Virus record (IMG/VR): IMGVR_UViG_3300021256_003716
DNA length: 64,000 nt
Source of the DNA: an uncultured virus (IMG/VR IMGVR_UViG_3300021256_003716)
Lineage: Duplodnaviria; Heunggongvirae; Uroviricota; Caudoviricetes
Direction: 5' to 3' (one strand)
Shown one piece after another: positions 3,635 to 53,978 of this stretch. A model generated the notes under the pieces. The model worked only from the letters and a program-made list of their open reading frames with translations, did not search any database and was not told the origin of the DNA. The position numbers and the translations under genes are program-made. Position 1 is the stretch's first letter. Every line of letters starts with the position of its first letter.

Positions 3635-3789
3635 AAATTGTATTGCTTGATCGTTCGAGTTCGTTTAAGCTTAAATGTGAGGACCGACGGAGATAATATT
3701 TTAATTTGTAGCTGTAGTGAGGGACGGCCTCAACAGCATGGTATGTAAAAAAATATTTGAGACGCCCACAGATACAAGGTTTTAGTTAT

Positions 3790-4338: not shown

Positions 4339-5646
4339 ATGTGGGAAATTAATGGAAAGAGAACATCTGATGAAAAAGAAGTAATGAAGGCCTTTGGTTT
4401 GAAATATCCTCCAATGGTTAAATCTCTTTTAGATACTGATTTGTATAAATTTACAATGCTGCAGGTCTATGTGCATCAGTGGAGCTCTGATCACGCAACA
4501 TGGGACTTTAAAGCTCGTAATGTTGGTGAAGGTACAGCTCATGAAAAATATACTGCGGAAGACCGTGAAGAAATTCAGAGACAGGCTAACGCATATTGCG
4601 CGCTTCGTTTTGAAGGTGAAGAACTTGATTGGCTTTCAGACTCAGTAAAGCGTCCTTGGATTCACCATAATTTCTGTGAATATCTTGAAGATTGGACGCC
4701 AAAAGCTAAACATATTACAATTGGAGATGATCCAAAAACAGGTTTGTCAATTCATACTGCAGCAACACAGCCTAAGTGTTCTCCTTATGAAATTCCTGTT
4801 CTTGAAATTTCCGCTGAAGTTTACTATCGTAATCATTATGATTATGAAGAAATGGCAAGAATTTTTAAGGAAAAAACACTTGCAAAAATTGAAGCAATTA
4901 AGCAGGGCATTTACAGACCTGGTGTTTTTTCTGAATTTGGAGCACGTCGTCGTGTAAGCTATGAGCTTCAGGATTGGCTTGTTAAAGAACTTGCTAATGC
5001 AATGAAAGATGAAAACTTTAGAAAGAATTGTACATTTGTTGGAACTTCAAATGTTCATTTGGCAAAGAAATATGATTTGACAGCGGTGGGCACTATGGCT
5101 CATGAGTTCATTATGTCTGTTGGCCAGGGACATCAGTACTATAATCCCGCTTATTCTAACTGGTATGCGCTTGACAGTTGGATTAAAGAATATGGTACAA
5201 TGAATGGTATCGCTCTTACAGATACTATTGGTACTGACGTATTCCTTCGTGATTTTAAGACCACTTTTGCAACTGTATTTAAAGGCGTTCGTCACGATTC
5301 GGGTGATCCTTACGCTTGGGGTGAAAAGATGATTGCCCACTATAAGAGCCTTGGAATTAATCCTGCAGAAAAAACTCTTATGTTCAGTGATGGCCTTAAT
5401 CTTCAGAAAGCAACAGAGCTTAATGATTATTTTAAGGATAAGATTCACGTTGCATTTGGTATTGGTACTGATTGGTCAGGTCCACAGAATATTGAGCCAC
5501 TTAATATTGTATGTAAAGTTGCAATTGTAAATGGTCTTGATGTTGCAAAACTTTCTGATGCCCCTGGAAAAAATATGTGTCGTAACCCAGCTGCTATTGA
5601 TCATCTTAAGAATGAGATTAGTTGGCGTATGGCTACAGATAAGTAA
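4339..5646 (+). CDS. pncB: Nicotinate phosphoribosyltransferase
   Basis: SLLDTDLYKFTM, SEFGARRR, GTSNV, GTMAHE, GVRHDSGD, FGIGT, KLSDAPGK. Confidence 0.95.
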   Translation: MWEINGKRTSDEKEVMKAFGLKYPPMVKSLLDTDLYKFTMLQVYVHQWSSDHATWDFKARNVGEGTAHEKYTAEDREEIQRQANAYCALRFEGEELDWLSDSVKRPWIHHNFCEYLEDWTPKAKHITIGDDPKTGLSIHTAATQPKCSPYEIPVLEISAEVYYRNHYDYEEMARIFKEKTLAKIEAIKQGIYRPGVFSEFGARRRVSYELQDWLVKELANAMKDENFRKNCTFVGTSNVHLAKKYDLTAVGTMAHEFIMSVGQGHQYYNPAYSNWYALDSWIKEYGTMNGIALTDTIGTDVFLRDFKTTFATVFKGVRHDSGDPYAWGEKMIAHYKSLGINPAEKTLMFSDGLNLQKATELNDYFKDKIHVAFGIGTDWSGPQNIEPLNIVCKVAIVNGLDVAKLSDAPGKNMCRNPAAIDHLKNEISWRMATDK

Positions 5647-12942: not shown

Positions 12943-13710
12943 TTAGGCCATTTTTTTAGACGTTTCTATTTTTTTATCTATCATATCCCAATCAGCGTTA
13001 TTAAAATTATCATGTAATATTTTATATACTTTACTAAAATATAAAGTAGGTATACCTATAGCAAAATTTTTATTATAAGAACTAAAAGGCCGATAGTTAT
13101 AGATAGTATCTATAATGCCCTCATTTATTTCTTCCTTTGATGGATTTTTATTCTTAAATTTTTCCATTTCAGAAAATAAAGCATCTAATGCTATATCATG
13201 AACTTTCTTATATTCTGGACGAGTTAGACATTCTTCTCTTGAATTATACTCAATAGTTTTTTCAAAGGCGGAATCTAATACTTCTACCCTAATACCTAAT
13301 CCACATGGAGTATTTTCTCTATATCTAATTTCCATTTCAGTATGGATAACTCCATCATAATCAGTTTTATTCCAAATAAAATCTATAAAATCTTTATTCC
13401 ATCGATCTAGATAATCTATATAAATATCTTCTACGTCTTCAAAACCATTTGCCTTAGCAAATGCCATATCATCGCTATTATTTATAGAGAATATCTTAAG
13501 TGGTCTTGTATTTTTATATACAAGGACTTTTCCAAAGAAATCGCCATCAATAAAAAAGTGTTTTACTGCATAGGTAAGAGCAGAATAAAGAAAGCTATCT
13601 GATAAAAAATATACTGTTTGGTTATAATCATGATATGTGCTTTTTTTCGGGTCATATTCGTCAAGATAGTTTTGACCATGAAACCAATATAAGTCTTTGG
13701 AATAAATCAT
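12943..13710 (-). CDS. Putative ADP-ribosyltransferase-like protein
   Basis: WFHG..YFLSD..A..YA..YDGVI pattern, similar to 48527-49717. Confidence 0.45.
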   Translation of the reverse strand: MIYSKDLYWFHGQNYLDEYDPKKSTYHDYNQTVYFLSDSFLYSALTYAVKHFFIDGDFFGKVLVYKNTRPLKIFSINNSDDMAFAKANGFEDVEDIYIDYLDRWNKDFIDFIWNKTDYDGVIHTEMEIRYRENTPCGLGIRVEVLDSAFEKTIEYNSREECLTRPEYKKVHDIALDALFSEMEKFKNKNPSKEEINEGIIDTIYNYRPFSSYNKNFAIGIPTLYFSKVYKILHDNFNNADWDMIDKKIETSKKMA

Positions 13711-14465
13711 AAATAATTAGTTTTTTGTACTTAGTCAAAGTAGGTTACATATTATAAAAGTTGATTAGATTTAGCAACTAATTAAAAATAAATATTTTAA
13801 TTACCTTTACATTTTTTGTAAATGCGCTAATTTAATAATATAAGATTTTTGATGATGTTTACATCATTAAAAATAAATCCTTTAAGGTTTTAAGGAGTCT
13901 GGTGAGCTTCTTATAGAAAACTTCCCACCAAGATATTTTTATATCGTTACCCTTCGGGGTAGGTAAAATGCCTGTGTCGCTTTTTTCCTATGATTGCAAA
14001 TTAAGGATAGTGACGTAGATGTAGGTTTACTTAGATAACTATAATACATTAATTCTTGAGTATTGATTGTCCTTCCGAGGATGATTCTCGTCTGAGTAAA
14101 CGATTTTTGTTGTAATGTTTAAGAAACTTTAATGAAAGCAATCTTTCTTAAAATAATCCAACAAGTCGGTTACCAGAAACTTTTTTGTTTATCAGGGAGT
14201 CAAATCTTTGATAAGCCATCGGATAAACTAGATTGTGGATAGTCGCTTGGGTTCACTACCTTAGCCCTTGTGGAAGGAGACTAGCAGTAAACTTTTCCTG
14301 ATAAGTGGTTTCAGTTTTGGGTTTACAATTTTTAACTAATTAAAATATTAAGTTTTATACTTAATAAAAATTGATTACATATTATAAATGTAAATCAATA
14401 AAAGATACTAATTAAAGTATCAATTGAATGGTTTTTAAGACCAAATTTTTTATAGGAGACAGAGC

Positions 14466-14594
14466 ATGAATACTTCTAAGAAGATTATTAAATCAGTTAC
14501 TCTTAGTGTAAAACCCGGCTGTGGGATTGTGCTACCATGTCTTAAAGGAATTTGGCAAAAGGAAGAGAGCTTAGAAACGAATTTAATTATCTAA
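14466..14594 (+). CDS. Attenuator leader peptide A (42 aa)
   Basis: AGGAG RBS; MNTSKKIIKSVTLSVKPGCGIVLPCLKGIWQKEESLETNLII. Confidence 0.75.
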   Translation: MNTSKKIIKSVTLSVKPGCGIVLPCLKGIWQKEESLETNLII

Positions 14595-14621
14595 AATAAG
14601 ATGTAATTAAAAAAGTTTTCT

Positions 14622-14651
14622 AGGCTCGGTTGAAAAAACTGAGCCTTTTTT
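14622..14651 (+). terminator. Attenuator A terminator
   Basis: AGGCTCGGTT-GAAAA-AACTGAGCCT plus T tract. The 5' arm can alternatively pair with 14567-14577. Confidence 0.8.
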
Positions 14652-14716
14652 ATTGGTAAAAGCTGCTAGACTTCCTTCCAGTCTTAGAAGTCGTTCACAA
14701 TGTTTTTGAAAATTAT

Positions 14717-14790
14717 GCATCATTAGCTCAGCTGGCTAGAGTGTCTGCCCTCCAAGCAGAATGTCGTCGGTTCGAATCCGACATGGTGCT
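14717..14790 (+). tRNA. tRNA-Gly(TCC)
   Basis: GCATCAT/ATGGTGC; TCTGC-CCTCCAA-GCAGA. Confidence 0.85.
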
Positions 14791-14792
14791 CT

Positions 14793-14908
14793 AAAAGAAT
14801 GCTGTAGAAGTGGTATACTTAGATTATAGGTTAATCATTTGAATGCTAATCAAACTTAAGCTGGTTCGAGTCCAGCAGTATAAAGCTGCTTCATTTTTTG
14901 CTTCTTTT
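14793..14908 (+). ncRNA. Y-RNA-like repeat, copy 3
   Basis: Conserved stem enclosing a canonical-order D / anticodon (GCT loop) / T cloverleaf. Confidence 0.65.
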
Positions 14909-14999
14909 GATTTTTATGAAAGATTCGACCAAAATCTTTCAAGACCTGTCAAGCTATTAAAGTAGGTTTGGTCGCTGAAAAGATAGCTTGATATTTTAT

Positions 15000-15071
15000 G
15001 TCACAGTCGTATAACGGTTATTACGTGGCCTTGCCAAGGCTGAAATGTGGTTTCGACTACCATCTGTGGCT
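15000..15071 (+). tRNA. tRNA-Gly(GCC)
   Basis: GTCACAG/CTGTGGC; loop TTGCCAA. Confidence 0.85.
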
Positions 15072-15168
15072 TATAGAGGAAAAACCGTCTGTAACCTCTT
15101 AAAAAACTTGTAGTCAATGGTAGTGGTGGACCTTAATCGAAACTGTTTAGCAGTTAAACCAACTCCAA

Positions 15169-15251
15169 CGGTTCGTGGCGTAATTGGCAGCCGCGTCAGA
15201 CTTAGGATCTGATGCTCTCCGAGCGTGTGGGTTCGACTCCCACCGAGCCGA
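15169..15251 (+). tRNA. tRNA-Leu(TAG)
   Basis: TCAGA-CTTAGGA-TCTGA, long variable arm. Confidence 0.9.
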
Positions 15252-15621
15252 CTAAAGGCGACTAATTGACGTGGTTTAAAAACCTACTCAGGTGGTCTTA
15301 ATGAAGCTTAAGTGTACTCCAGCCTGGATTAAAAGAAGGTGGCTGAAAGCCGGGAATAAACTCGTGTGGTTTTAGAATTCTTCCACATAAGGTAAATGCC
15401 TTAAGAGCAACAGCTCCCGTAGCTTGAGTGTGGATATATTGATTTAACACTCCCTGATAGGATGCTATAACTGAGTCCTAGGATAAGTAAACAGCAGGTT
15501 GTAATCTGTTTGAAGTATAGCAAATTTTTTAAGAATGCCAAAATTTATTTTACTGGCCTTCTTTAGTCTTTTCTTGGTATGTGGTAGTAAAAGGCACTTA
15601 TTTTAATATAGGAGAATGGAT

Positions 15622-15747
15622 ATGAGAAACGTAACTGTTAAAACAATTAAGATTACTCAGATTAAATACAACAAACCAGTTGTAATTAAACCCGTATGCC
15701 CATGGTGTCCTATTAAGGTATGGCCAGATTTGGAAGATTCTAAGTGA
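15622..15747 (+). CDS. Attenuator leader peptide B (41 aa)
   Basis: AGGAG RBS; MRNVTVKTIKITQIKYNKPVVIKPVCPWCPIKVWPDLEDSK. Confidence 0.8.
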   Translation: MRNVTVKTIKITQIKYNKPVVIKPVCPWCPIKVWPDLEDSK

Positions 15748-15783
15748 AATTTTTAATGATGCAAAATTAGAAGTTTGATTTAG

Positions 15784-15812
15784 AGTCTTTCAGGAAACTG
15801 AAAGACTTTTTT
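15784..15812 (+). terminator. Attenuator B terminator
   Basis: AGTCTTTCAG-GAAA-CTGAAAGACT plus T tract. Antiterminator 15730-15745/15778-15793. Confidence 0.85.
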
Positions 15813-15819
15813 ATTTTTA

Positions 15820-15891
15820 CGGCGACTGGGTCAGTAGTTGATCACTCGGCTTGGGACCGAGACCAGGGCGGAGCGTAACCGTCGTCGCCGA
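15820..15891 (+). tRNA. tRNA-Pro(TGG), atypical T loop
   Basis: CGGCGAC/GTCGCCG; CTCGG-CTTGGGA-CCGAG; T loop AGCGTAA. Confidence 0.75.
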
Positions 15892-16046
15892 TATAAAAGA
15901 AATGCTGTAAGATAAGAGTTACTTAGCTGTTGGAGCCGTGTGTCGTGGGTTCGAATCCTACTCTGCCGATTTTCGCCGGCAGATAGCTCAGTCTGGTAGA
16001 GCAACGAATAAAAAACTTTTATTTAGTTTTTGCTTTCTTTTTATAT
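15891..16046 (+). ncRNA. Y-RNA (YrlA)-like repeat, copy 4, with a circularly permuted tRNA domain
   Basis: T arm, then a closed acceptor stem TCTGCCG/CGGCAGA, then a D arm, all inside the conserved stem. Confidence 0.8.
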
Positions 16047-16132
16047 AGGTGTGTGGGTGAGTGGTCGAAACCAACAGTCTCCAAAACTGTCGTGATAAAT
16101 TCTCAACGCCTGTTCGAATCGGGCCGCACCTG
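16047..16132 (+). tRNA. tRNA-Trp(CCA), long variable region
   Basis: AGGTGTG/CGCACCT; ACAGT-CTCCAAA-ACTGT. Confidence 0.85.
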
Positions 16133-16137
16133 AAGCT

Positions 16138-16228
16138 AAGTAGTTGGACAAATTGGTAAAGTCGGCATTGTCCAAAGATGCTGTGTATGCGTACGATACA
16201 CTTATAGGTTCGAATCCTATACTACTTG
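16138..16228 (+). tRNA. tRNA-Trp(CCA), long variable arm
   Basis: AAGTAGT/ACTACTT; GCATT-GTCCAAA-GATGC; GTGTAT/ATACAC arm. Confidence 0.75.
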
Positions 16229-16236
16229 TAATATTT

Positions 16237-16308
16237 CGGAATGTGGGTCAAAGGTTGATCGCTGGTTTTGGGAACCAGATTATGTTAGTTCGAGTCTAAT
16301 CATTCCGA
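16237..16308 (+). tRNA. tRNA-Pro(TGG)
   Basis: CGGAATG/CATTCCG; CTGGT-TTTGGGA-ACCAG. Confidence 0.85.
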
Positions 16309-16484
16309 CTATTCCAAAAAGCGCTGGGAGAACATCCAGAAAAGTTTGGGCTAACACAAACCAAGTAAGGATGCCTAAGCGGAATGGTAACTTTGCTGTG
16401 ATTCTATGGCGTAGTTAGAGATGCTGTAGGCTGGTTAAGGAATAAGGCAACATAATAAGAGCCATGTTGATGAGGAATTTTTAT

Positions 16485-16561
16485 GCTAGTGTGGAAACAA
16501 ATTGGTAAAGTTACCACTCTGATAAAGTGGGAATGTGGTAGTTCAAGTCTATCCACTAGCA
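16485..16561 (+). tRNA. tRNA-Ile(GAT)
   Basis: GCTAGTG/CACTAGC; CCACT-CTGATAA-AGTGG. Confidence 0.85.
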
Positions 16562-16646
16562 CGTGCGTTATGAGTGGAAGGCCTCGCATGATAATGTGCT
16601 ATCTAGGGATTTTTCGGTAAACCTTAAAAATAACCGACCATTTTAC

Positions 16647-16720
16647 TGGACATGTTCTCGACGGTTTTTGGGAGCTGGTCTGATAAACCAGTACACGTAG
16701 TTCAACTCTACGGTGTCCAA
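16647..16720 (+). tRNA. tRNA-Ile(GAT)
   Basis: TGGACAT/GTGTCCA; CTGGT-CTGATAA-ACCAG. Confidence 0.75.
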
Positions 16721-16802
16721 GAGGAGCACGATTGAATAGGGGGCTTCTGAAACAAAAACCGCTATTTAGGGATTTTATGGTAAACCTTAAAAAAACCTAT
16801 TT

Positions 16803-16874
16803 GCTCCTTGTCCTCGACGGGTTGAGGAATAGTTTTACAAACTATCACACATTGTTCGACTCAATGAGGGAGTA
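16803..16874 (+). tRNA. tRNA-Val(TAC)
   Basis: ATAGT-TTTACAA-ACTAT; T arm CATTG/CAATG. Confidence 0.75.
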
Positions 16875-16882
16875 TATTATTT

Positions 16883-16953
16883 GTTCTATTCGTATAATGG
16901 TAGTACCTTAGCTTGACGTGCTAATGGCGGAAGTTCGATTCTTTCATAGAACA
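16883..16953 (+). tRNA. tRNA-Val(GAC)
   Basis: GTTCTAT/ATAGAAC; TTAGC-TTGACGT-GCTAA. Confidence 0.85.
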
Positions 16954-17114
16954 GCCTAAGGTTTCATCAGGTATCCAAAGATAGGCGGAAACTTGGTAGG
17001 TAGAAATACCTCTGAAAATATTGGGAGTTAACGTTACCCAATCTATGAGTAAGTTAAGTGAGTTTTCAGGTTTAGCACATTTTTGTGTTAAACTAGAAAT
17101 CTCAAAAATATTTT

Positions 17115-17186
17115 GGTCGGTTTGCCAAGTGGTAAGGCGGGTGGCTGCAACCCATCTATGCAGGTGTTCGATTCATCTACCGATCT
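17115..17186 (+). tRNA. tRNA-Cys(GCA)
   Basis: GGTCGGT/ACCGATC; loop CTGCAAC; U73. Confidence 0.9.
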
Positions 17187-17254
17187 TAATTTATGGCAGT
17201 TTAGCCAAGCGGCTCTTGCAGCGGTCTATACTTATTATTTTTACTAATTATTAT

Positions 17255-17926
17255 ATGAGTTTTAGTGAATATAACAAGAAAAGACAAAAAGACTGGTTTT
17301 GTGATGAATGTAATAAAACATTTAAAACACGTGTTGAATATCGTCAGCATCGTAAGGAAGTTAAGCATAAATCTGCTCATTCTAGGCCTTCTATAAATTG
17401 GACCTGTGAATATTGTGGATGTGAAAGGTTTTCTCCAAAGGGGTCTCAAACACTTCATATGAAATATTGCTTAGCTAATCCAAACCATATTCAGTGTATA
17501 GGACATAAAGTATTAGAAGAAACTAAAAATAAAATTTCTAAAGGTATGGTTCTAGTACATAAAGAAGGTCGTGCTAATGAATGGCAAGGTAGACGCGAGC
17601 GTAGCTATGCGGAACAAAGCTGGTATAATATTTTTACAAAGGATTTTGGTGAAGGCTCTTTTGCTAATAATTATTTTGTAAAGAAATATTGGCTTGATTT
17701 CGCTTGGCCTGAGAAAAAATTATATTTTGAAGTTGATGGCCGAACACACTTTACAGAAGAGGGACTTCTTCATGATAAAGAACGTACTGAGTTTCTTATT
17801 AGTGAGGGATGGACACTAATCGGTAGGTGTAATTGGTCAGAATACCAAAAATTATCTAAAGAAGATAAAGAGTCTTTTGTTAGGGCTATTGAAAATAAAA
17901 TTTTGGCCGTGAATCCGAATGGTTAG
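17255..17926 (+). CDS. Homing-endonuclease-like protein (zinc finger, NUMOD3-like, DUF559/Vsr-like nuclease)
   Basis: CDEC..H..H, EETKNKIS, YWLDFAW..YFEVDGRTH. Inserted inside a tRNA array. Confidence 0.8.
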   Translation: MSFSEYNKKRQKDWFCDECNKTFKTRVEYRQHRKEVKHKSAHSRPSINWTCEYCGCERFSPKGSQTLHMKYCLANPNHIQCIGHKVLEETKNKISKGMVLVHKEGRANEWQGRRERSYAEQSWYNIFTKDFGEGSFANNYFVKKYWLDFAWPEKKLYFEVDGRTHFTEEGLLHDKERTEFLISEGWTLIGRCNWSEYQKLSKEDKESFVRAIENKILAVNPNG

Positions 17927-17977
17927 GTAGCAAGTCTGCAAAACTTGTTGTTGAGGGTTCGAATCCCTCCGCGGTCT
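17905..17977 (+). tRNA. tRNA-Cys(GCA)
   Basis: CAAGT-CTGCAAA-ACTTG; overlaps the endonuclease stop codon. Confidence 0.85.
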
Positions 17978-18034
17978 TTATAAAATGACGGTGGTGGGTT
18001 CGAATCCCACCCCCGCCTCTTAAAGGAGACTTTT

Positions 18035-18190
18035 ATGGATTGTGGCATGGTAATAATAAATGGGCCTATGGCTGAAAGAATTTATAATGCTATGCTAGAA
18101 TCATCTGAAAAATCTAAATCTAATAAGGAAAAGCGTGAAAAGCGTTTAAGAGAGTTTGAAGAACGTATGAAGAAGAAACAGAGGGCTTAA
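18035..18190 (+). CDS. Small hypothetical protein (51 aa)
   Basis: AAGGAG RBS; below the track cut-off. Confidence 0.55.
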   Translation: MDCGMVIINGPMAERIYNAMLESSEKSKSNKEKREKRLREFEERMKKKQRA

Positions 18191-18259
18191 CCTTCTATTC
18201 AGTCCATTGGAATTGAAGGTGCCCAGTTAAATGGAACAAGACATTTTCAATTTTTTAAT

Positions 18260-18331
18260 GGGCTGTTAGGAAAGCGGATAATCCACTGGTCTTTTAAACC
18301 AAGTAGCCGGGTTCAACCCCCGGACAGCTCA
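18260..18331 (+). tRNA. tRNA-Lys(TTT)
   Basis: GGGCTGT/ACAGCTC; loop CTTTTAA. Confidence 0.8.
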
Positions 18332-18339
18332 TCTTTTAA

Positions 18340-18428
18340 GGGCACGTTCCGATAGTAGGTTTAATCGACCAGACTTTTAATCTGGAGAGGCTTGTTCCTC
18401 ATCGTGGGTCCGAATCCCACCGTGCTCA
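18340..18428 (+). tRNA. tRNA-Lys(TTT), long variable arm
   Basis: CCAGA-CTTTTAA-TCTGG; GAGG/CCTC arm. Confidence 0.8.
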
Positions 18429-18435
18429 TTTTTAC

Positions 18436-18527
18436 GGGCGTGTTAGTATAGCCAGGTCGAATACAGCAGACTCTTAATCTGCCGGAGCATTGTTTCTCCC
18501 ACGTGAGTTCAAATCTCACCACGCTCA
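18436..18527 (+). tRNA. tRNA-Lys(CTT), long variable arm
   Basis: GCAGA-CTCTTAA-TCTGC; GGAG/CTCC arm. Confidence 0.85.
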
Positions 18528-18531
18528 TTTT

Positions 18532-18606
18532 TAGCCCATAGCTCAAGTAGTTAGAGCAGCGCCCATTTAAGGCGTCAGGTTCTTAGTGCAAGTCTAAGTG
18601 GGCTAA
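18532..18606 (+). tRNA. tRNA-Lys(TTT)-like
   Basis: TAGCCCA/TGGGCTA; loop CATTTAA with A33. Confidence 0.65.
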
Positions 18607-18653
18607 ATCTTTATAAATGTGAAACAATATACCAGTATATTGCATATTTATTA

Positions 18654-18799
18654 GAATGTTCAGTGCAATAAGTGCCATATGGTTGGCTGCGTATTCAGTA
18701 GGTAAGCTGAGTTCACTGGAGACATTGGTTTAAATCCAATCCGGAAGGTTTCAACTGGTAGTTAGAGAAAGACATAGAACGCCAGTGAATTGAACATTC
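18654..18799 (+). ncRNA. RNA with a permuted tRNA-like domain
   Basis: GAATGTTCA/TGAACATTC and TTCACTGG/CCAGTGAA stems enclose a T arm, a closed stem and a D-like arm. Confidence 0.55.
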
Positions 18800-18836
18800 A
18801 ATTTTTGTTTATAAAAGCATATGTTATTATAAAATT

Positions 18837-19082
18837 ATGTCATCAAGTAATTATGAGGAAGTAGACGCCGTTGAAAAAAGTTCCGGTGGTACTTATAATC
18901 GGTATATTTGTCCATTTTGTAAACGAGTTTTGTATACTCAGAAATCAGGATTCTATCATGATGTACTTTTCGATAAAATAAAATCGCATAAGTTAGTATG
19001 TAAAAAATATCAAGCAGCTGTAGTTTGTGGAAAAGCAAATTCTAGATATTTTTATTATAAAATTATACATTATAAGATTTAA
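18837..19082 (+). CDS. Small CxxC..H..C zinc-finger protein
   Basis: RYICPFCKRVLY..HKLVC; paralog of the 21427-22697 cluster. Confidence 0.7.
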   Translation: MSSSNYEEVDAVEKSSGGTYNRYICPFCKRVLYTQKSGFYHDVLFDKIKSHKLVCKKYQAAVVCGKANSRYFYYKIIHYKI

Positions 19083-26716: not shown

Positions 26717-26962
26717 ATGTATAGAGCACAACCTAAAAGACAAGACCATGGAACTCGTGGTTCTAAAAGAGAGTCATTACTCCACTGGGGTAACGTTAAG
26801 AAGGGTATGAAGCAATTTTTAAAAGCTGCATACAGAGAACAAAAACACAATTGGAAAATTGAATTAAACAAGCTAGGAATCGATTGTACTGATGAAGAAA
26901 TCGAGGAATATGAAACAAGAACTCAGTTTAATTCACAATGCATGTGGTATTGGTTTGACTAA
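26717..26962 (+). CDS. Hypothetical protein
   Basis: ORF track. Confidence 0.6.
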   Translation: MYRAQPKRQDHGTRGSKRESLLHWGNVKKGMKQFLKAAYREQKHNWKIELNKLGIDCTDEEIEEYETRTQFNSQCMWYWFD

Positions 26963-27061
26963 TCAATAAAATTATTAAAGAAACTGGCCAGGGATCTCTA
27001 ACGGATGCTGAGAGGCTTAATGATGCTACTGAATGGTGGTAGCCCAGTTTCTTTTTATTTT

Positions 27062-29673: not shown

Positions 29674-30465
29674 ATGAAGATTGAAGATGTTAAGAAAGTT
29701 CGTGAAATTACAGGCGCAGGCCTTTCTGATTGTAAAACTGCTTTGGAAAAAGCAAATGGCAATGTAGATGAAGCAGTTAAGGTTCTTCAGAAAGAAGGCC
29801 TTGCAGCATCAAATGCTCGTGCACAGCGAGCTACTTCAGAAGGTCGTATTTTTACTCATGTTGAAGATAATGTTGTTACAATGTATGCAGTTAAATGTGA
29901 AACTGACTTTGTAGCTAATAGTGAGGATTTTAAGAATATTGGAAAATGCGTTGATGATGGTGAAACTCTTGGAGCTGTAATTGATAGACTTAAAATTTCT
30001 ATGCGTGAAAATATTCAGCCAGGAAATTTTGTCAAAGTTCCTTTTGACTTAAATGATATTGGCTCAACCTATATTCACTCAGATGGTAAGTCAGGTGCGG
30101 TAGTTCTTATTGAAGGAGTAGATCCTGCTAAAGTAGAAAGTGCAAAGGTTTTTGCTCATGATGTTTGTTTGCATATGGTAGCATTTAATCCACTGTATAT
30201 TTCAGTAGATGATGTTTCCCCTTCTGTTGTTAGTGAAAAACGCGAAATTTTTGCAGCTCAGATGGATAACGATCCAAAAATGACAAATAAGCCAGAAAAT
30301 GTAAAAGCTGGAATTCTTCAGGGTAAACTTAAAAAAGCTATTTCAGAACTTTGTTTGCTTAGCCAGCCATTTGTAAAGGATGATAAAAATACAACATCTT
30401 ATGTACTAGCTCGTGAGTGTGGACCTAATGCAAAAATTAGAGAAGCTAAACTTATTCAGCTTTAA
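29674..30465 (+). CDS. tsf: Translation elongation factor Ts
   Basis: VKKVREITGAGLSDCKTAL, CETDFVA, YIH, LHMVAFNP, KPENV..GK. Confidence 0.95.
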   Translation: MKIEDVKKVREITGAGLSDCKTALEKANGNVDEAVKVLQKEGLAASNARAQRATSEGRIFTHVEDNVVTMYAVKCETDFVANSEDFKNIGKCVDDGETLGAVIDRLKISMRENIQPGNFVKVPFDLNDIGSTYIHSDGKSGAVVLIEGVDPAKVESAKVFAHDVCLHMVAFNPLYISVDDVSPSVVSEKREIFAAQMDNDPKMTNKPENVKAGILQGKLKKAISELCLLSQPFVKDDKNTTSYVLARECGPNAKIREAKLIQL

Positions 30466-31554: not shown

Positions 31555-32456
31555 GTGGAAAAATTTTATATTTATGAAACAGGTGCAACTGTTTTTGGTG
31601 TTAAAGATGGCGTTGTAACAGAGTATTCTAAACACGAAAGCCCAAAAGTATGTGATGAGCAAGATACAAAAGTTATTCTTGAAGATATTGATAAAGGTAT
31701 AATGAAGTCAGTTTCATCAGTTAAGGATGGCTTTGGTAGGCTTAATCAGATTGAAGTCTTAGATGATATTTTTTAGGGACTAATTTATATTATGAAGCAA
31801 ATTACAGCAGAGTTTAAAAAGAGACTGTCAGACCGTCTTAATACAATTATAAAGAATAATGAGCAACTTATACTTACACATAAAAATGGCGTAAAAGAAG
31901 AGCTTATTGTGGGACGCTCAAGAGATAGTATTTATATTTATAATAATGATGCAGATCTTATCACTGCTTTTGAAATTGAAGGTGGGAATGGCGCTTATGA
32001 GCTAAATCTCAAAAATGCTTCAATTTGGCTTTATAAAGCTGCATATTTAGATCAACTAGTTTCTGATAAATAGATTTAGTATGTATGAATAATAAAAAAG
32101 AACCAAAAATATTTAAAAAAGGTACAAAAATAGATTTTAATTTTACACATGTTCCAGAATGGGGGCGAGGCGTTCCAAGATGCTTATTAGGTAAAGGATA
32201 TTTTTGTATTGGAAATGAAGAATCTGTTAAAGGCTGGTATGAAATTAAAGGTAATATAGATTACTATTTTGATGATAAATGGAAAGGAAAGATACCATTT
32301 AAGGGTTCATTTCAGCTAATAGAAACTCAAGCAGATATTTTTATTGAGACATTTAGTGGGTATAGTTGGCATTTTATAGAACATCATAATTTTGACCAAT
32401 CAGAATACCCTTTTGAAATATGTACTTTTGATACGCATATTTCAGCTATTCAATAA
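31555..32456 (+). CDS. Three small hypothetical ORFs (31555-31776, 31792-32073, 32085-32456)
   Basis: ORF track, tandem. Confidence 0.6.
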
Positions 32457-32541: not shown

Positions 32542-32572
32542 TATACTTATAACTAACTAATTACATATAATA
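32542..32572 (+). promoter_or_regulatory. Putative phage promoter (TATACT-N~15-ACATAT[A/T]AT class) upstream of leader C
   Basis: The motif recurs more than 12 times at the starts of transcription units. Confidence 0.65.
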
Positions 32573-32621
32573 AATGTAGCTTGTGTGGCTACTTAAGAAT
32601 TTTTAATAGGAGTCAAAGAAT

Positions 32622-32735
32622 ATGACTAGAAACGTTAGTTTATTACAGTTTAGTTTTCTCAGCCAGATGCACTTTAGCTTGCATCAGTTCTTTATGCTCT
32701 TATGTGAAGGGGCTAATCGGAATAGTATTAAGTGA
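32622..32735 (+). CDS. Attenuator leader peptide C (37 aa)
   Basis: AGGAG RBS; MTRNVSLLQFSFLSQMHFSLHQFFMLLCEGANRNSIK. Confidence 0.85.
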   Translation: MTRNVSLLQFSFLSQMHFSLHQFFMLLCEGANRNSIK

Positions 32736-32774
32736 TTTTTAGATTTATAAGAACAGTTAATAGATTTTGATTAA

Positions 32775-32809
32775 AGCCCTTTCAGGAAAGATTCTTGAAA
32801 GGGTTTTTT
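32775..32809 (+). terminator. Attenuator C terminator
   Basis: AGCCCTTTCAGGAA-AGA-TTCTTGAAAGGGTT plus T tract. Antiterminator strand at 32705-32723. Confidence 0.85.
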
Positions 32810-32815
32810 ATTTTT

Positions 32816-37975: not shown

Positions 37976-38596
37976 AAATTTATATAGGGACGATAAAGTC
38001 CCTTATTTTGGAATAAGTCGTAACGAGTATTTCTTGTGCAAATAAGACCTCCATTGTGAAAAAAGACTGCTGTATTATATGAGTCATTTGGCCGTAATAC
38101 GGAGTTGGTTAGCCGAGCTGAAATTGATGCATCGAGTAAGCTCAGAGAAAGGATAAGACAAAGTGCATAGTCGTCTAAATGGGAGGGCGCACTCTGAAAG
38201 AGGAGTGAATATGGGTTCGAATCCCATTTATGCTTTGAAGCGCCAGAAAATAACGGACCAAGTGTTAAGTATAGGTCTGGTAGACCGTATAAAGTGCCCG
38301 CTTGGATAGCGGCCGTGACGAGAAGGCTGGGACCTATAACGCCTCATTAGCTTGTTAAACTAAAAGACGCTATACGAGTTGTATATTAGGGTGATTGCAA
38401 CACGAGAGGGTGAAGCTTAAGCCACAAAAATCCCTAATTTTTAAAAGCTGTGTGAGACGAGGAAGTTCCTCTCAATAGCCACAGTAGCTAGCTCGGCTAG
38501 TGGAGCCCCAATTTTTGGGGCGTTATTGTTAATATAAAATTATTAGAATTTTTGAGAAAATACTAATTAAATATAAATTTTAATAAGGAGACGAAA

Positions 38597-39059: not shown

Positions 39060-40235
39060 ATGTTTGATATAAATGGAAAATATGGCTCAGCAAAAGTTTA
39101 TGCGGAAACAATTGATGATGCTTGTATTTCACAGATTTATGGATTTTTAAATAATCCTATTACAGAAAATGTAAAAGTAGCAGTAATGCCAGATGCTAAT
39201 GTTGGCAAAGGCAGTACAGTTGGTTTTACACAAGAAATTAAAGATAAAGTAAATCCAAGTATGGTCAGTGTTGATATTGGATGTGGCATGTTGGTATGCA
39301 AAGTATCTAAAGAATATCATATGGATTTACCAAAGTTAGATAAAGTAATTCACCAGCAAATTCCTAGTGGCTTAAAGCACTGTGATAAGGTAAGCCTTTT
39401 TGCTAAGAATATCGACTTAAAAGGTCTTATTGCGGATGTAAATTACAATAAGGAAATTTTAGGTCTTTCATCACTCGGAGGTGGTAACCACTTCATTGAG
39501 GTAGATAAAGATCAAGAAGGTGATTACTATATTGTAATCCATTCTGGATCAAGACACTTAGGTGTTGCAGTTTGTGAGTATTGGGAAAAAGTAGCTAATA
39601 ATTTTCATAAGAAGCTAGCGGTAAAGAAATCAGAGTTGATTAATGCTAAAAATGAAAAAGCGTTAGCAGAATTGCCACCAGTAGTAACTTCTTATGGATT
39701 ATCTTATTTAATGGGAGAAGACCTAAAAGGTTATCTACATGATATGAAGATTACACAGGAGTTTGCAAGGCTTAACCGTGAAGCAATGCTTGATGTAATT
39801 CTTACTGAAATGGGAATTAAGAAGCGATATATTTTGGATAAGTTTTGTACTATCCATAATTATATCGACTTAAATAAAATGGTTTTAAGAAAGGGCGCAA
39901 TTTCTCTTGAAAAAGGTGAAAGAGCAATAATTCCAATTTCTATGGCATATGGCTCTTTAATTGTAGAAGGCAAAGGAAACCCTGATTGGAACTTTTCTGG
40001 ACCACATGGGGCAGGAAGACTTTTATCAAGGTCAGACGCTAAAAATTCTATTTCTATGGAAGACTATAAGAAATCTATGGAAGGAATTTATACAACTTGC
40101 GTAAAAGCTTCAACAGTAGATGAGTCACCAATGGCTTATAAAAATCCTGATGAGATTATTAGAGCTATTGATGGTACAGCAACAATTATAAAGACAATAC
40201 ACCCTATTTATAACTTTAAGGCCGGTAGTGATTAA
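39060..40235 (+). CDS. rtcB: RtcB RNA ligase (2',3'-cyclic phosphate / 5'-OH)
   Basis: MPD, DIGCG, GGGNHF, HSGSR, HNY, RKGA, HGAGR, DESPMAYK. Confidence 0.95.
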   Translation: MFDINGKYGSAKVYAETIDDACISQIYGFLNNPITENVKVAVMPDANVGKGSTVGFTQEIKDKVNPSMVSVDIGCGMLVCKVSKEYHMDLPKLDKVIHQQIPSGLKHCDKVSLFAKNIDLKGLIADVNYNKEILGLSSLGGGNHFIEVDKDQEGDYYIVIHSGSRHLGVAVCEYWEKVANNFHKKLAVKKSELINAKNEKALAELPPVVTSYGLSYLMGEDLKGYLHDMKITQEFARLNREAMLDVILTEMGIKKRYILDKFCTIHNYIDLNKMVLRKGAISLEKGERAIIPISMAYGSLIVEGKGNPDWNFSGPHGAGRLLSRSDAKNSISMEDYKKSMEGIYTTCVKASTVDESPMAYKNPDEIIRAIDGTATIIKTIHPIYNFKAGSD

Positions 40236-41831: not shown

Positions 41832-42434
41832 ATGATTGAACTTAGAGAAAATAAAGAAAAAGATGACTTTGCTAAAGGTCGCGTTTTAATTTGGGATAAG
41901 CTACCTCGCATTCATAAACTTTGGAAAAATGAATCGGAACGCCTTAAATTAGAATGTGCAATAATGCTGGATAATCAAACTTCATTTTTAGCTAGATTAT
42001 CTGATGATCAGCTTGATGATTTATTAGAAAAGCATCATTTTGAATCAGCTGAAGAATGTTTAGAAAATGTAATTCAGCTTTATAAAGATTTTTCTAAAAA
42101 AGAAAATCTTGATGTAGTTGCATTACAAACTGGAAGGGATGCTATACCATATAGAAATGCTGTTAGAGATGCTGATTATATGGTTTCATGTCGTGAAACG
42201 TCCTATGAAGCTATAGATGTAGTACTTAAAGCTGCCAAGCATGCAGTTTTAGGTATATTGGTTCCATTTATGACCTCTAGGCAAAATAAACCTTGTATGT
42301 TTGCAGACTGGTTTTTGAGCGATATAAAAAAAGATGCGGATGCATCAGCGTTAATTGAGCCATTACCAGAAGGTGCCCAAGCAGCTATTTATGAGAGTGA
42401 TGAACCTTACAAAAGTGAAGAAAGCTTTAAGTAA
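41832..42434 (+). CDS. Hypothetical protein
   Basis: ORF track. Confidence 0.7.
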   Translation: MIELRENKEKDDFAKGRVLIWDKLPRIHKLWKNESERLKLECAIMLDNQTSFLARLSDDQLDDLLEKHHFESAEECLENVIQLYKDFSKKENLDVVALQTGRDAIPYRNAVRDADYMVSCRETSYEAIDVVLKAAKHAVLGILVPFMTSRQNKPCMFADWFLSDIKKDADASALIEPLPEGAQAAIYESDEPYKSEESFK

Positions 42435-42470
42435 CTAATTATTTTAATATTAAATATGGAGAATGTTGAT

Positions 42471-42563
42471 ATGACAATGGTAAGAACAAACAGAACAATT
42501 ACTCGTCGTAGACGTATCACACGTCGTAGATATGTCATGTCTTTATGCGAACTCCAGATTTAA
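42471..42563 (+). CDS. Attenuator leader peptide E (30 aa)
   Basis: GGAG RBS; MTMVRTNRTITRRRRITRRRYVMSLCELQI. Confidence 0.8.
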   Translation: MTMVRTNRTITRRRRITRRRYVMSLCELQI

Positions 42564-42587
42564 ATTTTTGATAATTTGAATTTTAGC

Positions 42588-42614
42588 AGGCAGTTCGCAA
42601 GAACTGCCTTTTTT
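42588..42614 (+). terminator. Attenuator E terminator
   Basis: AGGCAGTTC-GCAA-GAACTGCCT plus T tract. Antiterminator strand at 42546-42553. Confidence 0.85.
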
Positions 42615-42619
42615 ATTTT

Positions 42620-52457: not shown

Positions 52458-53978
52458 GTGATGGATGAAAATTTAGAAAAGTTAACTGCATGGGACAGAA
52501 TTTTATCAGTTATTGATGAGGATGATGAGTTTAATCCTATTTATGATGGATTATCTCCGAAAAATTTATTAGATATCCCAGATTATGACAAAAAGTTAGA
52601 AAATGCTCAAAAATTAACCAAATTAGAGGATAGTATCCTAACCGGTATTGGTATTGTAGGCGGAGTTACTTGTGCTATAGGCGCAATGGACTATAGATTT
52701 CTTTGTGGGAGTCTAGGAAGTGTCTCTGGCGAAAAAATTGCCAATCTTATTGAAATTGCTGGTAGAGGTGGCTATCCTCTTATTATATTTTGCTGTTCTG
52801 GCGGCGCTCGTATGCAAGAGGGAATTTACTCTCTAATGCAAATGAGCAAAATTGTTACAACCCTTGCAAAATATAAAGAACAAATACCAATTTATATTTC
52901 TATTTTAACTAATCCTACAATGGGCGGCGTAACTGCTAGTTTTGGTATGCTAGGCGATATTATTCTAGCAGAGCCTGACGCTACAATAGGTTTTGCAGGC
53001 CCTAAAGTTATTGAGCCACTTATAAAAGAAAAAATTCCAAAAGATTTTCAGAGTGCGGAAAATCAGCTTAAAAATGGATTTATTGATGCAGTAGTACCAA
53101 GAGACCAGTTAAAAAATACATTAGATTTACTTATCAAGAGTACAAAATATCAAGTATTAGACAAAGATACATCTACAGTTGAATTTGATTTAGTAAACTA
53201 CCAAGAAGACGTTTGGCAAAAAATAAAAGGTATTAGGTCTTTCGAGAGGCTTGATAATAAGGATTACATTTCAAAATTATTTAATAACTTTATCGAATTA
53301 CATGGTGATCGAGTATCTGGTGATGACCCTACAATTTATGGTGGAATTGCATATTTTAGGGATATTCCAGTAACTGTAATCAGTATCACAAAAGGACATA
53401 ATACTGATGAAATTATTAAAAATAAATTTGGTATGGTTTCCCCTGAAGGGTATAGAAAAGCTATTAGATTATTAAAATTGCATCCTTCAAGGCCAGTTAT
53501 TATTTTTGTAAATACTCCGGGTGCATATCCAGGTATACTTGCTGAAGAAAAAGGCCAAGGAACAGCTATTGCGAATTGTTTACTTGCTATGGCTGATGTA
53601 ACCGCCCCAACATTATCATTTATTACAGGTGAGGGCGGCTCAGGTGGCGCTTTAGCGTTAGCTACTAGCAATTGTGTCTGGATGCTAGAAAATTCTGTTT
53701 ATTCAGTTATATCTCCAGAAGGATTTGCTTCAATTTTATTTAAGGATGTAAATAGAGCACCTGAAGCTGCAAAACTTATGAGAATGACATCTAAAGACTT
53801 ATTAGAAGCTGAAGTAATTGATGGTATAATTCCTGAGCATGGCGGCGCAACAATGGAGCATTTAGATGAAATTGTTAAAGATATGGCAACTGTAATTGGC
53901 AATTTTATTAGAAAGTCTCATGACAAAAGTGGTAAGACTATCGTAGATGCAAAACATCAAAAGTTTAGTAAGTTTTAA
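52458..53978 (+). CDS. accDA: Acetyl-CoA carboxylase carboxyltransferase beta-alpha fusion
   Basis: SGGARMQEG, PTMGGV, GFAGP (AccD) followed by ELHGDR, PEGYRKA, GEGGSGGALA, YSVISPEG (AccA). Confidence 0.92.
   Translation: MMDENLEKLTAWDRILSVIDEDDEFNPIYDGLSPKNLLDIPDYDKKLENAQKLTKLEDSILTGIGIVGGVTCAIGAMDYRFLCGSLGSVSGEKIANLIEIAGRGGYPLIIFCCSGGARMQEGIYSLMQMSKIVTTLAKYKEQIPIYISILTNPTMGGVTASFGMLGDIILAEPDATIGFAGPKVIEPLIKEKIPKDFQSAENQLKNGFIDAVVPRDQLKNTLDLLIKSTKYQVLDKDTSTVEFDLVNYQEDVWQKIKGIRSFERLDNKDYISKLFNNFIELHGDRVSGDDPTIYGGIAYFRDIPVTVISITKGHNTDEIIKNKFGMVSPEGYRKAIRLLKLHPSRPVIIFVNTPGAYPGILAEEKGQGTAIANCLLAMADVTAPTLSFITGEGGSGGALALATSNCVWMLENSVYSVISPEGFASILFKDVNRAPEAAKLMRMTSKDLLEAEVIDGIIPEHGGATMEHLDEIVKDMATVIGNFIRKSHDKSGKTIVDAKHQKFSKF

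Follow-up and report, generated by a model that had tools for sequence, protein, structure and literature searches.

Enterobacterial leader attenuators, with trp, his, leu and pheA and the multivalent leaders of ilvGMEDA (Ile/Val/Leu) and thr (Thr/Ile) as representatives, and T-box riboswitches, which bind uncharged transfer RNA (tRNA) directly without translation and exist also in tandem, are the closest described systems to the arrangement reported here. Phage tRNA genes have usually been seen as constitutively co-expressed cargo, which provides a fit to codon usage or replaces tRNAs lost to host defences. In this work, a stretch of 64,000 nucleotides (nt) of DNA from an uncultured virus (IMG/VR record IMGVR_UViG_3300021256_003716; Duplodnaviria; Heunggongvirae; Uroviricota; Caudoviricetes), in its full length called the window, was analysed with respect to two short leader open reading frames (ORFs), leader A and leader B, each followed by an intrinsic terminator and a block of tRNA genes (Table 1). 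The two leaders are very likely leader-peptide attenuators of these tRNA blocks and probably constitute a nested gate of two tiers, arranged in series in one tRNA operon, in which leader A lists the union of the codons served by both blocks.

As in the enterobacterial leaders, a Shine-Dalgarno sequence precedes a short ORF with test codons, a terminator is overlapped by an antiterminator, the position of the ribosome would decide between the two structures and several amino acids are covered by one leader. In contrast to the enterobacterial leaders, where biosynthetic enzymes are regulated, the genes under control would be phage tRNA genes, the lists are far longer with 6-10 amino acids in 16-36 codons, and their codons match the anticodons behind the gate. 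Furthermore, two and possibly three gates would be placed in series, and the list of the upstream gate includes that of the downstream gate. The T-boxes are alike in that tRNA status is sensed, terminator readthrough is controlled and copies occur in tandem in series, but differ in that here an ORF preceded by a Shine-Dalgarno sequence would carry the signal, with no Rfam T-box match in the window. In fact, neither the T-box nor any of the curated Rfam leader families gave a gathering-score match in the window, where all 37 gathering-score matches are tRNAs; the only leader-type match at an expectation value (E) of at most 1 in 13700-19000 was PyrG_leader on terminator B, with 28.8 bits versus a cut-off of 65 and E=0.81. 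A full-text literature search, which left subscription journals mostly outside, retrieved no account of leader-peptide control of tRNA genes, phage or bacterial, and no relevant paper on attenuation of Escherichia coli pheU. A conceivable leader precedent for E. coli tRNA-Phe was equally not borne out, with the K-12 pheV promoter running directly into the tRNA and no leader ORF.

Both leaders show the anatomy of an attenuator. The antiterminator of leader A, which the initial annotation had placed between 14567-14577 and 14617-14627, is a helix of 11 base pairs (bp) including one G-U pair with a folding free energy (dG) of -15.5 versus a shuffle mean of -7.1, and none of 500 shuffles, which here and in the other antiterminator tests preserve mononucleotide content only, gave a helix as strong. 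The antiterminator of leader B reaches a dG of -18.2, again with 0 of 500 shuffles as strong. When the two leaders are folded up to the terminator loop, the antiterminator helix is the minimum-energy structure in each of them, with a small hairpin across or next to the stop codon enclosed by these pre-terminator helices.

The codon content of the leaders connects them to the arrays behind. The run of leader B consists of 18 codons solely for K, P, V, I, C and W, the exact amino-acid set of array B, with a probability (P) of 5.5e-10 at the codon level, where U34 is taken to read whole family boxes here and for the run of leader A unless strict wobble is stated, and of 2.4e-9 at the amino-acid level. 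In a six-frame scan of the window comprising 1,758 open segments and 74,997 residues, this run of 18 is the longest that can be built from {K,P,V,I,C,W}, the runner-up having 9 residues. The run of leader A equally has 18 codons, which are cognate to arrays A and B taken together (P=3.7e-7 within the ORF at the codon level; 2.4e-5 at the amino-acid level) with all residues within {G,S,L} plus {P,W,I,V,C,K}. Against array A alone the longest run in leader A is 2, against array B alone it is 5, and the own-array sets lie outside the five best-scoring sets for this leader. Codons 15-30 of leader A (VKPGCGIVLPCLKGIW) include the Gly codons GGC, GGG and GGA and the Leu codons CTA and CTT, for which the initial annotation had pointed to Gly(TCC), Gly(GCC) and Leu(TAG), all present in the adjacent block; V, K, P, C, I and W of the array behind B, likewise claimed to occur in leader A, are present without exception. 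The codons of leader A are distributed over isoacceptors. Leu is encoded in the run by CTT, CTA and CTT and at both positions outside the run by TTA, Ser14 is AGT, and several codons of leader A are rare in phage genes (GGG 4%, GTG 3%, CCC 4%, CTA 9%).

The relation between the two leaders is one-sided. In leader A, 20 of the 41 codons are cognate to block B and cover all six block-B amino acids, and in leader B codons cognate to block A are absent (0 of 40). Such a one-sided relation is what gates in series demand, because the outer gate must open for shortages concerning the inner block, but not vice versa.

Matched leaders are found elsewhere in the window. Sister unit C precedes an array of Phe, Leu(taa), Phe, His, Leu(gag), His, Leu(caa), Gln(ctg), Met, Gln(ctg) and Ser(gct), and its leader contains a run of 22 residues, SLLQFSFLSQMHFSLHQFFMLL, with the next-best run from that amino-acid set in the window having 12. 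All 22 codons of this run are cognate even by strict wobble (P=9e-16 within the ORF), and the match extends to synonymous choice, since Gln is CAG in 3 of 3 cases and Ser is AGY in 4 of 4 versus 46% CAG of Gln and 36% AGY of Ser in phage genes. The match is poorer in sister unit D, where 9 of 29 codons are cognate, the Thr codons ACA/ACT face the anticodon CGT and Asn and Ile are unexplained.

Relatives of the phage were found via RtcB as IMG/VR contigs of 219-419 kilobases (kb) with RtcB proteins 51-77% identical, of which five records were scanned for tRNAs; three of these are rated complete, two of the three with terminal repeats. At least nine further matched leaders with Shine-Dalgarno sequence, terminator and matching array were recognized in these related huge phages. 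In relative L005, four leaders are present. In the first (MKKTFVTLNNTSPLYQPTSNWLNSSMLTPNGGSW), a run of 24 residues draws on {T,L,N,S,P,Y,Q,W,M}, exactly the set of the tRNAs as far as the next leader, those located past an embedded RtcB gene included; the second is a weaker case, in which K, D, E and C account for 20 of 46 residues ahead of K,K,K,D,D,E,C. Three leaders occur in G002/L006 and three in G003/L007/L010/L014, for example MKSLSLQCQLLSNSLLSWCLLS... before W,L,L,L,Q,C,S,L and ...SSNSMFGYSYYMMGYS... before Y,Y,M,M,S,S. In G002, one leader, MVENGIIGRSIICASSIASAKAVAPRIVPCSSKWVIAGKKEKDFK, stands ahead of an undivided array of P,P,S,P,A,A,G,I,V,C,K,K,K,W,R, and its 36-residue run contains exactly the ten amino acids of that array (P,S,A,G,I,V,C,K,W,R), with an antiterminator of dG -20.0 that none of 1,000 shuffles equalled. 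A single leader can therefore list a unit of 3 kb and 15 genes. Leader A of the window has a list of similar extent, although its unit is divided by a second gate. All 13 leaders tested, from the window and the relatives, have the layout of antiterminator and terminator, with p<=0.012 in 11 of them, 0.036 for D and 0.08 for one L005 leader, and three more leaders of relatives gave p<=0.006 for the antiterminator; as L007 and L010 are near-duplicates, fewer of these leaders are independent. Further candidate leaders at 3738-3785 and 26892-26969 of the window and at G003a 2285-2374 were dropped, as they did not match their arrays.

The ORFs of A and B might alternatively encode functional small Cys/Trp peptides, with the hairpins being ordinary gene-end terminators and the resemblance to the tRNA sets a coincidence, and the two peptides do share a loose K-P-x-C ... 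C ... K-x-W pattern. Such an interpretation is, however, hardly credible beside run probabilities of 5.5e-10 for B and 9e-16 for C, a peptide composition that shifts with array content across at least 13 leaders in five phages and an antiterminator pairing that recurs without sequence conservation, while A and B show no similarity by BLASTP.

The proposed operon would start at the promoter at 14358 and proceed through leader A with its terminator, block A, the spacer and leader B with its terminator to block B. A ribosome that reaches the stop codon of a leader would occupy or enclose the 5' arm of the antiterminator, upon which the terminator would form and transcription would end; a ribosome stalled in the test codons by scarcity of charged tRNA would leave this arm free to pair with the 5' arm of the terminator and would permit readthrough to the tRNA genes. 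A ribosome covers about 12-15 nt downstream of its A site. As the run of leader A ends at 14555, 11 nt before the arm, a stall anywhere in the run should leave the arm free, and a ribosome at the stop codon (14592) would lie within the 39-nt loop to be closed by the antiterminator. In leader B the arm extends from 4 nt past the run to the stop codon. It would be freed by stalls within the first two thirds of the run and covered by a terminating ribosome. Since the polymerase would reach gate B only via gate A, gate A must open also at a shortage of block-B tRNAs, and the need to open for a shortage in either block would explain why A is spelled in the codons of both blocks and B in its own only. 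Consequently for the regulated genes, a shortage in decoding Gly or Leu(CUN) would lead to expression of block A alone and a shortage in decoding Pro, Trp, Ile, Val, Cys or Lys would open both gates, with the newly made tRNAs speeding up leader translation and closing the gates in a negative feedback. The single transcript, the stalling and the shortage response of A and B are what we infer from the sequence.

The gates might also report general translation capacity, such as ribosome availability, global shut-off or an uncoupling of transcription from translation late in infection, with the codon match serving feedback tuning only. With no ribosome on the leader, the antiterminator is favoured before the 3' arm of the terminator has been made, so that loss of translation would open the gates. 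Within the coding part, the minimum-energy folds of A and B form small hairpins, none of which clearly competes for the 5' arm of the antiterminator, and no clear 1:2 hairpin that would prevent such opening was seen. Because of this lack of a clear 1:2 hairpin, a total loss of leader translation probably opens the gates too, which keeps a general sensor under consideration and is a complication for a gate specific to individual codons. A general sensor, however, needs no block-specific lists, whereas all four window leaders and the leaders of the relatives track their arrays, with C doing so down to the synonymous level, and it is accordingly regarded as a quite improbable explanation.

The nested arrangement requires one transcription unit across both gates. 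A 31-nt promoter motif, TACTTA-N8-12-TTACATATWATAAA, has exactly three copies in the window (13728, 14358, 32544) and none in 100 shuffles, and a 64-nt repeat with 73% identity (13723-13786 and 14353-14416) accompanies the first two. The initial annotation had noted a promoter box before A and none before B; the box is located at 14358-14388, the whole-window search gave no copy of the motif before leader B and a sigma-70-type scan gave no plus-strand site between 14723 and 18072. From terminator A to terminator B, no terminator-like site was found except a weak 6-bp hairpin within a tRNA at 14874-14890. Upstream elements can be recognized also at other leaders. A shorter element, AACTAATTA, is present near A, C and D, its ACTAATT core is located 59-75 nt upstream of all four L005 leaders and the L007/L010 leaders have a different common upstream element. 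Each of the four L005 leaders and both L007/L010 leaders have a conserved upstream element of their own, and leader 1 of L005 and leader 1 of L007/L010, which were compared with the neighbouring units, list their own unit only. Matches to the 31-nt promoter motif in four viral contigs were dismissed as chance, none of them having tRNAs.

As the main rival, A and B might be real but independent attenuators, with an unrecognized promoter for B and with the block-B codons in A as a leftover of an undivided-array leader or of a duplication of B that has no present role. The single G002 leader for a combined array of G, S, P, W, I, V, C and K is in agreement with this rival, as such codons would persist after a recent split. 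A promoter of another class may lie upstream of B, and ACTAATTG at 15263, about 360 nt before B, resembles the ACTAATTA element located near, and upstream of, other leaders. Contigs from RNA libraries moreover cover the spacer at 15225-15479 and end at 15479 in two runs of one study. Against independent units stand the empty result of motif search and sigma-70-type scan before B, but also the codon choice and order of the two runs, which differ and align no better than composition allows, unlike a recent copy. Smith-Waterman scores of A with B, A with the G002 leader and B with the G002 leader were not above those of composition-preserving shuffles (p=0.18, 0.37 and 0.94), and common descent of these leaders, including descent of A from a whole-array leader, is for this reason not claimed, a point that also counts against the nested gate. 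All seven residues of the A run outside the block-B set are G, L or S, which suggests that the run is maintained as a list.

Natural variants also speak against independent units. In a DNA contig of 1,246 nt from run X4, leader B with its terminator (15598-15817) is kept with three other letters and one gap and 15291-15524 is present with 15 other letters, but the 73 nt directly before the ribosome site of B (15525-15597) are deleted. In this variant, Gly(gcc) and Leu(tag) (15008-15290) are replaced by 96 other letters and the first tRNA-Pro (15818-15888) by 85, with leader B kept. This looks like an exchange of tRNA cassettes in an otherwise conserved regulatory frame. In a second X4 contig, the sole listed change in the promoter motif of A is 14383 T>A, with which the motif still fits, versus eight changes in the preceding 46 nt. 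A diverged X4 piece of leader A (34 other letters, 35 gap letters) was not readable as a frame, and its apparent loss of CTA was not used. With these points taken together, independent units with a hidden promoter for B are considered unlikely, and the nested series gate is retained as the probable reading. The initial annotation had put forward this nesting, and the points on which it can be addressed in sequence, namely attenuator anatomy, asymmetry, promoter position, the variant and the listing of a whole unit by one leader, agree with it.

Contigs from RNA libraries extend across leader A and terminator A into the first tRNAs (14433-14860; another from about 13826 to 14717) and give no information on transcript ends, strand or condition. 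No RNA contig of X11 and X12 lies on 15531-15896, where leader B is located; as a gap in contig cover is no evidence, nothing is drawn from it.

Several further observations weigh against the nested gate. Carry-over of DNA may contribute to the RNA-library contigs. Under strict wobble, cognate codons number 15 of 18 in the A run, the exceptions being CTT twice and CCC, and the longest cognate run shrinks to 8 in A (P=3.6e-3) and to 6 in B; the codons CCC, CCT and CTT depend for their match on U34 decoding whole family boxes. With 45-54% of the residues in the six-frame scan, the union set is large, and the A run ranks just second to third there, so that its weight lies in its placement within a leader rather than in rarity alone. 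Thr flanks the A run, addition of the array D set {R,T} gives a better score (run of 28, P=1e-6), and with no credible tRNA-Thr in block A or B, the Thr near the run is unmatched. Finally, default ARAGORN calls Pro, Trp twice, Pro, Ile, Val, Cys twice and Lys four times behind leader B, to which slightly relaxed settings add Ile(gat) at 16485, found also by Rfam, and Val(tac) at 16801-16873, which appears in relaxed ARAGORN only and is absent among the Rfam matches at E<=1. If this Val(tac) is discounted, the GTA and GTG codons of A and B match at the amino-acid level only. The block-B tRNAs listed in the initial annotation are all present, but the likely Val(tac), the second Ile(gat) and a possible third gate had been overlooked.

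This tentative third gate, which is considered somewhat less likely than not, might be located at 18035-18252 before the four tRNA-Lys genes. The alternative pairing of 18182-18201, in the stop-codon region, with the 5' arm of the hairpin has a dG of -19.2 and was not equalled in 1,000 shuffles. The terminator hairpin itself (18211-18252) is weak with a dG of -9.2, and the tail of the ORF is rich in K, E and R without being a clean Lys list. Lys codons occur in A as well as in B, so that three tiers would still obey the nesting rule. A three-tier cascade, in which A lists everything, B lists block B including Lys and the third gate lists Lys alone, is a possibility that must be called doubtful on the present sequence, and equally speculative is its function as a codon-resolved sensor of host tRNA loss, for example by anticodon nucleases, which would replace the failing tRNA classes in operon order. 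Such a sensor would fit the RtcB tRNA ligase encoded nearby, which in L005 lies inside a leader-controlled tRNA unit.

The arrangement suggests that the phage gauges decoding speed for individual codons and makes a tRNA block only when needed, and that attenuators can be stacked, with the upstream gate carrying the union of the downstream demands. If true, the attenuation logic of trp, his and ilv would be extended to tRNAs as a new class of regulated genes, and operon structure in uncultured huge phages would follow a simple rule, the list in the leader corresponding to the transcription unit. Equally, timing and reason of phage tRNA expression would become directly testable by short reporter constructs. 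A three-tier cascade, if true, would represent a viral OR-logic circuit built purely from nested leader peptides.

Table 1. Coordinates of the leaders, gates, tRNA blocks and other features in the 64,000-nt window
Feature	Position	Strand	Remark
Promoter motif, first copy	13728..13758	+	ahead of an ORF-less 0.6 kb leading to promoter A
Promoter motif before leader A	14358..14388	+	TACTTA-N11-TTACATATTATAAA
Shine-Dalgarno sequence of leader A	14455..14458	+	GGAG
Leader ORF A	14466..14594	+	42 codons (42 amino acids), ATG at 14466
Regulatory run of A	14502..14555	+	codons 13-30 (LSVKPGCGIVLPCLKGIW); cognate throughout to arrays A+B, provided U34 reads whole family boxes
Antiterminator A, 5' arm	14567..14577	+	inside codons 34-38 (GAGCTTAGAAA)
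Antiterminator A, 3' arm	14617..14627	+	TTTCTAGGCTC; overlaps terminator 5' arm
Intrinsic terminator A	14622..14652	+	10-bp G+C-rich stem 14622-14646 and T tract, dG -15.3
tRNA block A	14717..15252	+	Gly(tcc) 14717, GCT-anticodon tRNA 14813, Gly(gcc) 15000, Leu(tag) 15169; ARAGORN, Rfam
ORF-less spacer, block A to leader B	15253..15610	+	no promoter motif or terminator found
Shine-Dalgarno sequence of leader B	15611..15614	+	GGAG
Leader ORF B	15622..15747	+	41 codons, ATG 15622 (in-frame ATG 15616 would make 43)
Regulatory run of B	15673..15726	+	codons 18-35 (KPVVIKPVCPWCPIKVWP)
Antiterminator B, 5' arm	15730..15745	+	final ORF codons; partner 15778-15793
Intrinsic terminator B	15783..15815	+	11-bp stem 15783-15808 and T tract, dG -14.9
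tRNA block B, first part	15820..17977	+	Pro, Y-RNA-like element, Trp x2, Pro, Ile x2, Val(tac), Val(gac), Cys x2
ORF with DUF559 and C2H2 zinc-finger matches	17021-17926		between the two tRNA-Cys genes; Pfam
Candidate third gate	18035..18252	+	before Lys x4; Shine-Dalgarno sequence, 51-codon ORF 18035-18190, antiterminator, weak hairpin and T run
tRNA-Lys x4	18259..18607	+	ttt, ttt, ctt, ttt; ARAGORN
Sister unit C	32544..32813	+	promoter motif, leader 32622-32735, terminator 32776-32805; ahead of Phe/Leu/His/Gln/Met/Ser tRNAs
Sister unit D	42471..42618 (also given as 42433-42618)	+	leader 42471-42563 (RTNRTITRRRRITRRR), terminator 42588-42610; ahead of Arg x4, Thr
Nicotinate phosphoribosyltransferase (NAPRTase)	4339-5646		Pfam
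EF-Ts	29674-30465		Pfam
RtcB tRNA ligase	39060-40235		Pfam
Acetyl-CoA carboxyltransferase-like protein	52458-53978		Pfam

The window has AT-rich, phage-like DNA with 33% G+C and contains 41 tRNA genes by ARAGORN at default settings. Pfam analysis of its 23 large ORFs identified families including EF-Ts, RtcB, NAPRTase, an acetyl-CoA carboxyltransferase-like protein and an AAA ATPase, with 12 of the 23 having no family. Within block B, the ORF with DUF559 and zinc-finger matches is probably a homing-type endonuclease inserted in the array. The GenBank phage collection contained no close relative of the window and gave matches of tRNA length only, and the public runs in which part of the stretch recurs are metagenomes and metatranscriptomes from animal guts. 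A search for orthologues of the A-B region gave none, the flanking 255-residue ORF and the AAA ATPase having no relatives in viral_contigs, and a degenerate pattern for the CPWCPIKVW core gave 0 stretches in metagenome_contigs. The ORF-less parts at 13790-14330, 15253-15615 and 16310-16480 had no Rfam match and no similarity to the loci compared; the fold z-score of the spacer 15253-15610 is only -0.46, and another ORF-less part has a fold z-score of -1.95.

Some RNA genes of the window deviate from the common type. The tRNA with the anticodon GCT in block A (14813-14884), which reads AGY (Ser), has 72 nt and no long variable arm, unlike bacterial tRNA-Ser, and its identity is uncertain. In block B, a Y-RNA-like element (YrlA, RF02553) at 15923-16029 scores 46.4 bits versus a cut-off of 69 (E=2.9e-8) and resembles a tRNA with the 3' half placed ahead of the 5' half; a stretch similar to it is located in L005 at about 13150-13215, directly upstream of a leader. 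Unusually long ARAGORN calls, which may carry extra arms or inserts, concern two 'Trp' genes of 88 and 93 nt (16046-16229) and two 'Lys' genes of 89 and 92 nt (18340-18527). A tRNA-like gene at 38163-38236 was called with the four-base anticodon aaag, and relaxed ARAGORN settings produced more odd calls, including two with the anticodon tta at 32102 and 35998.

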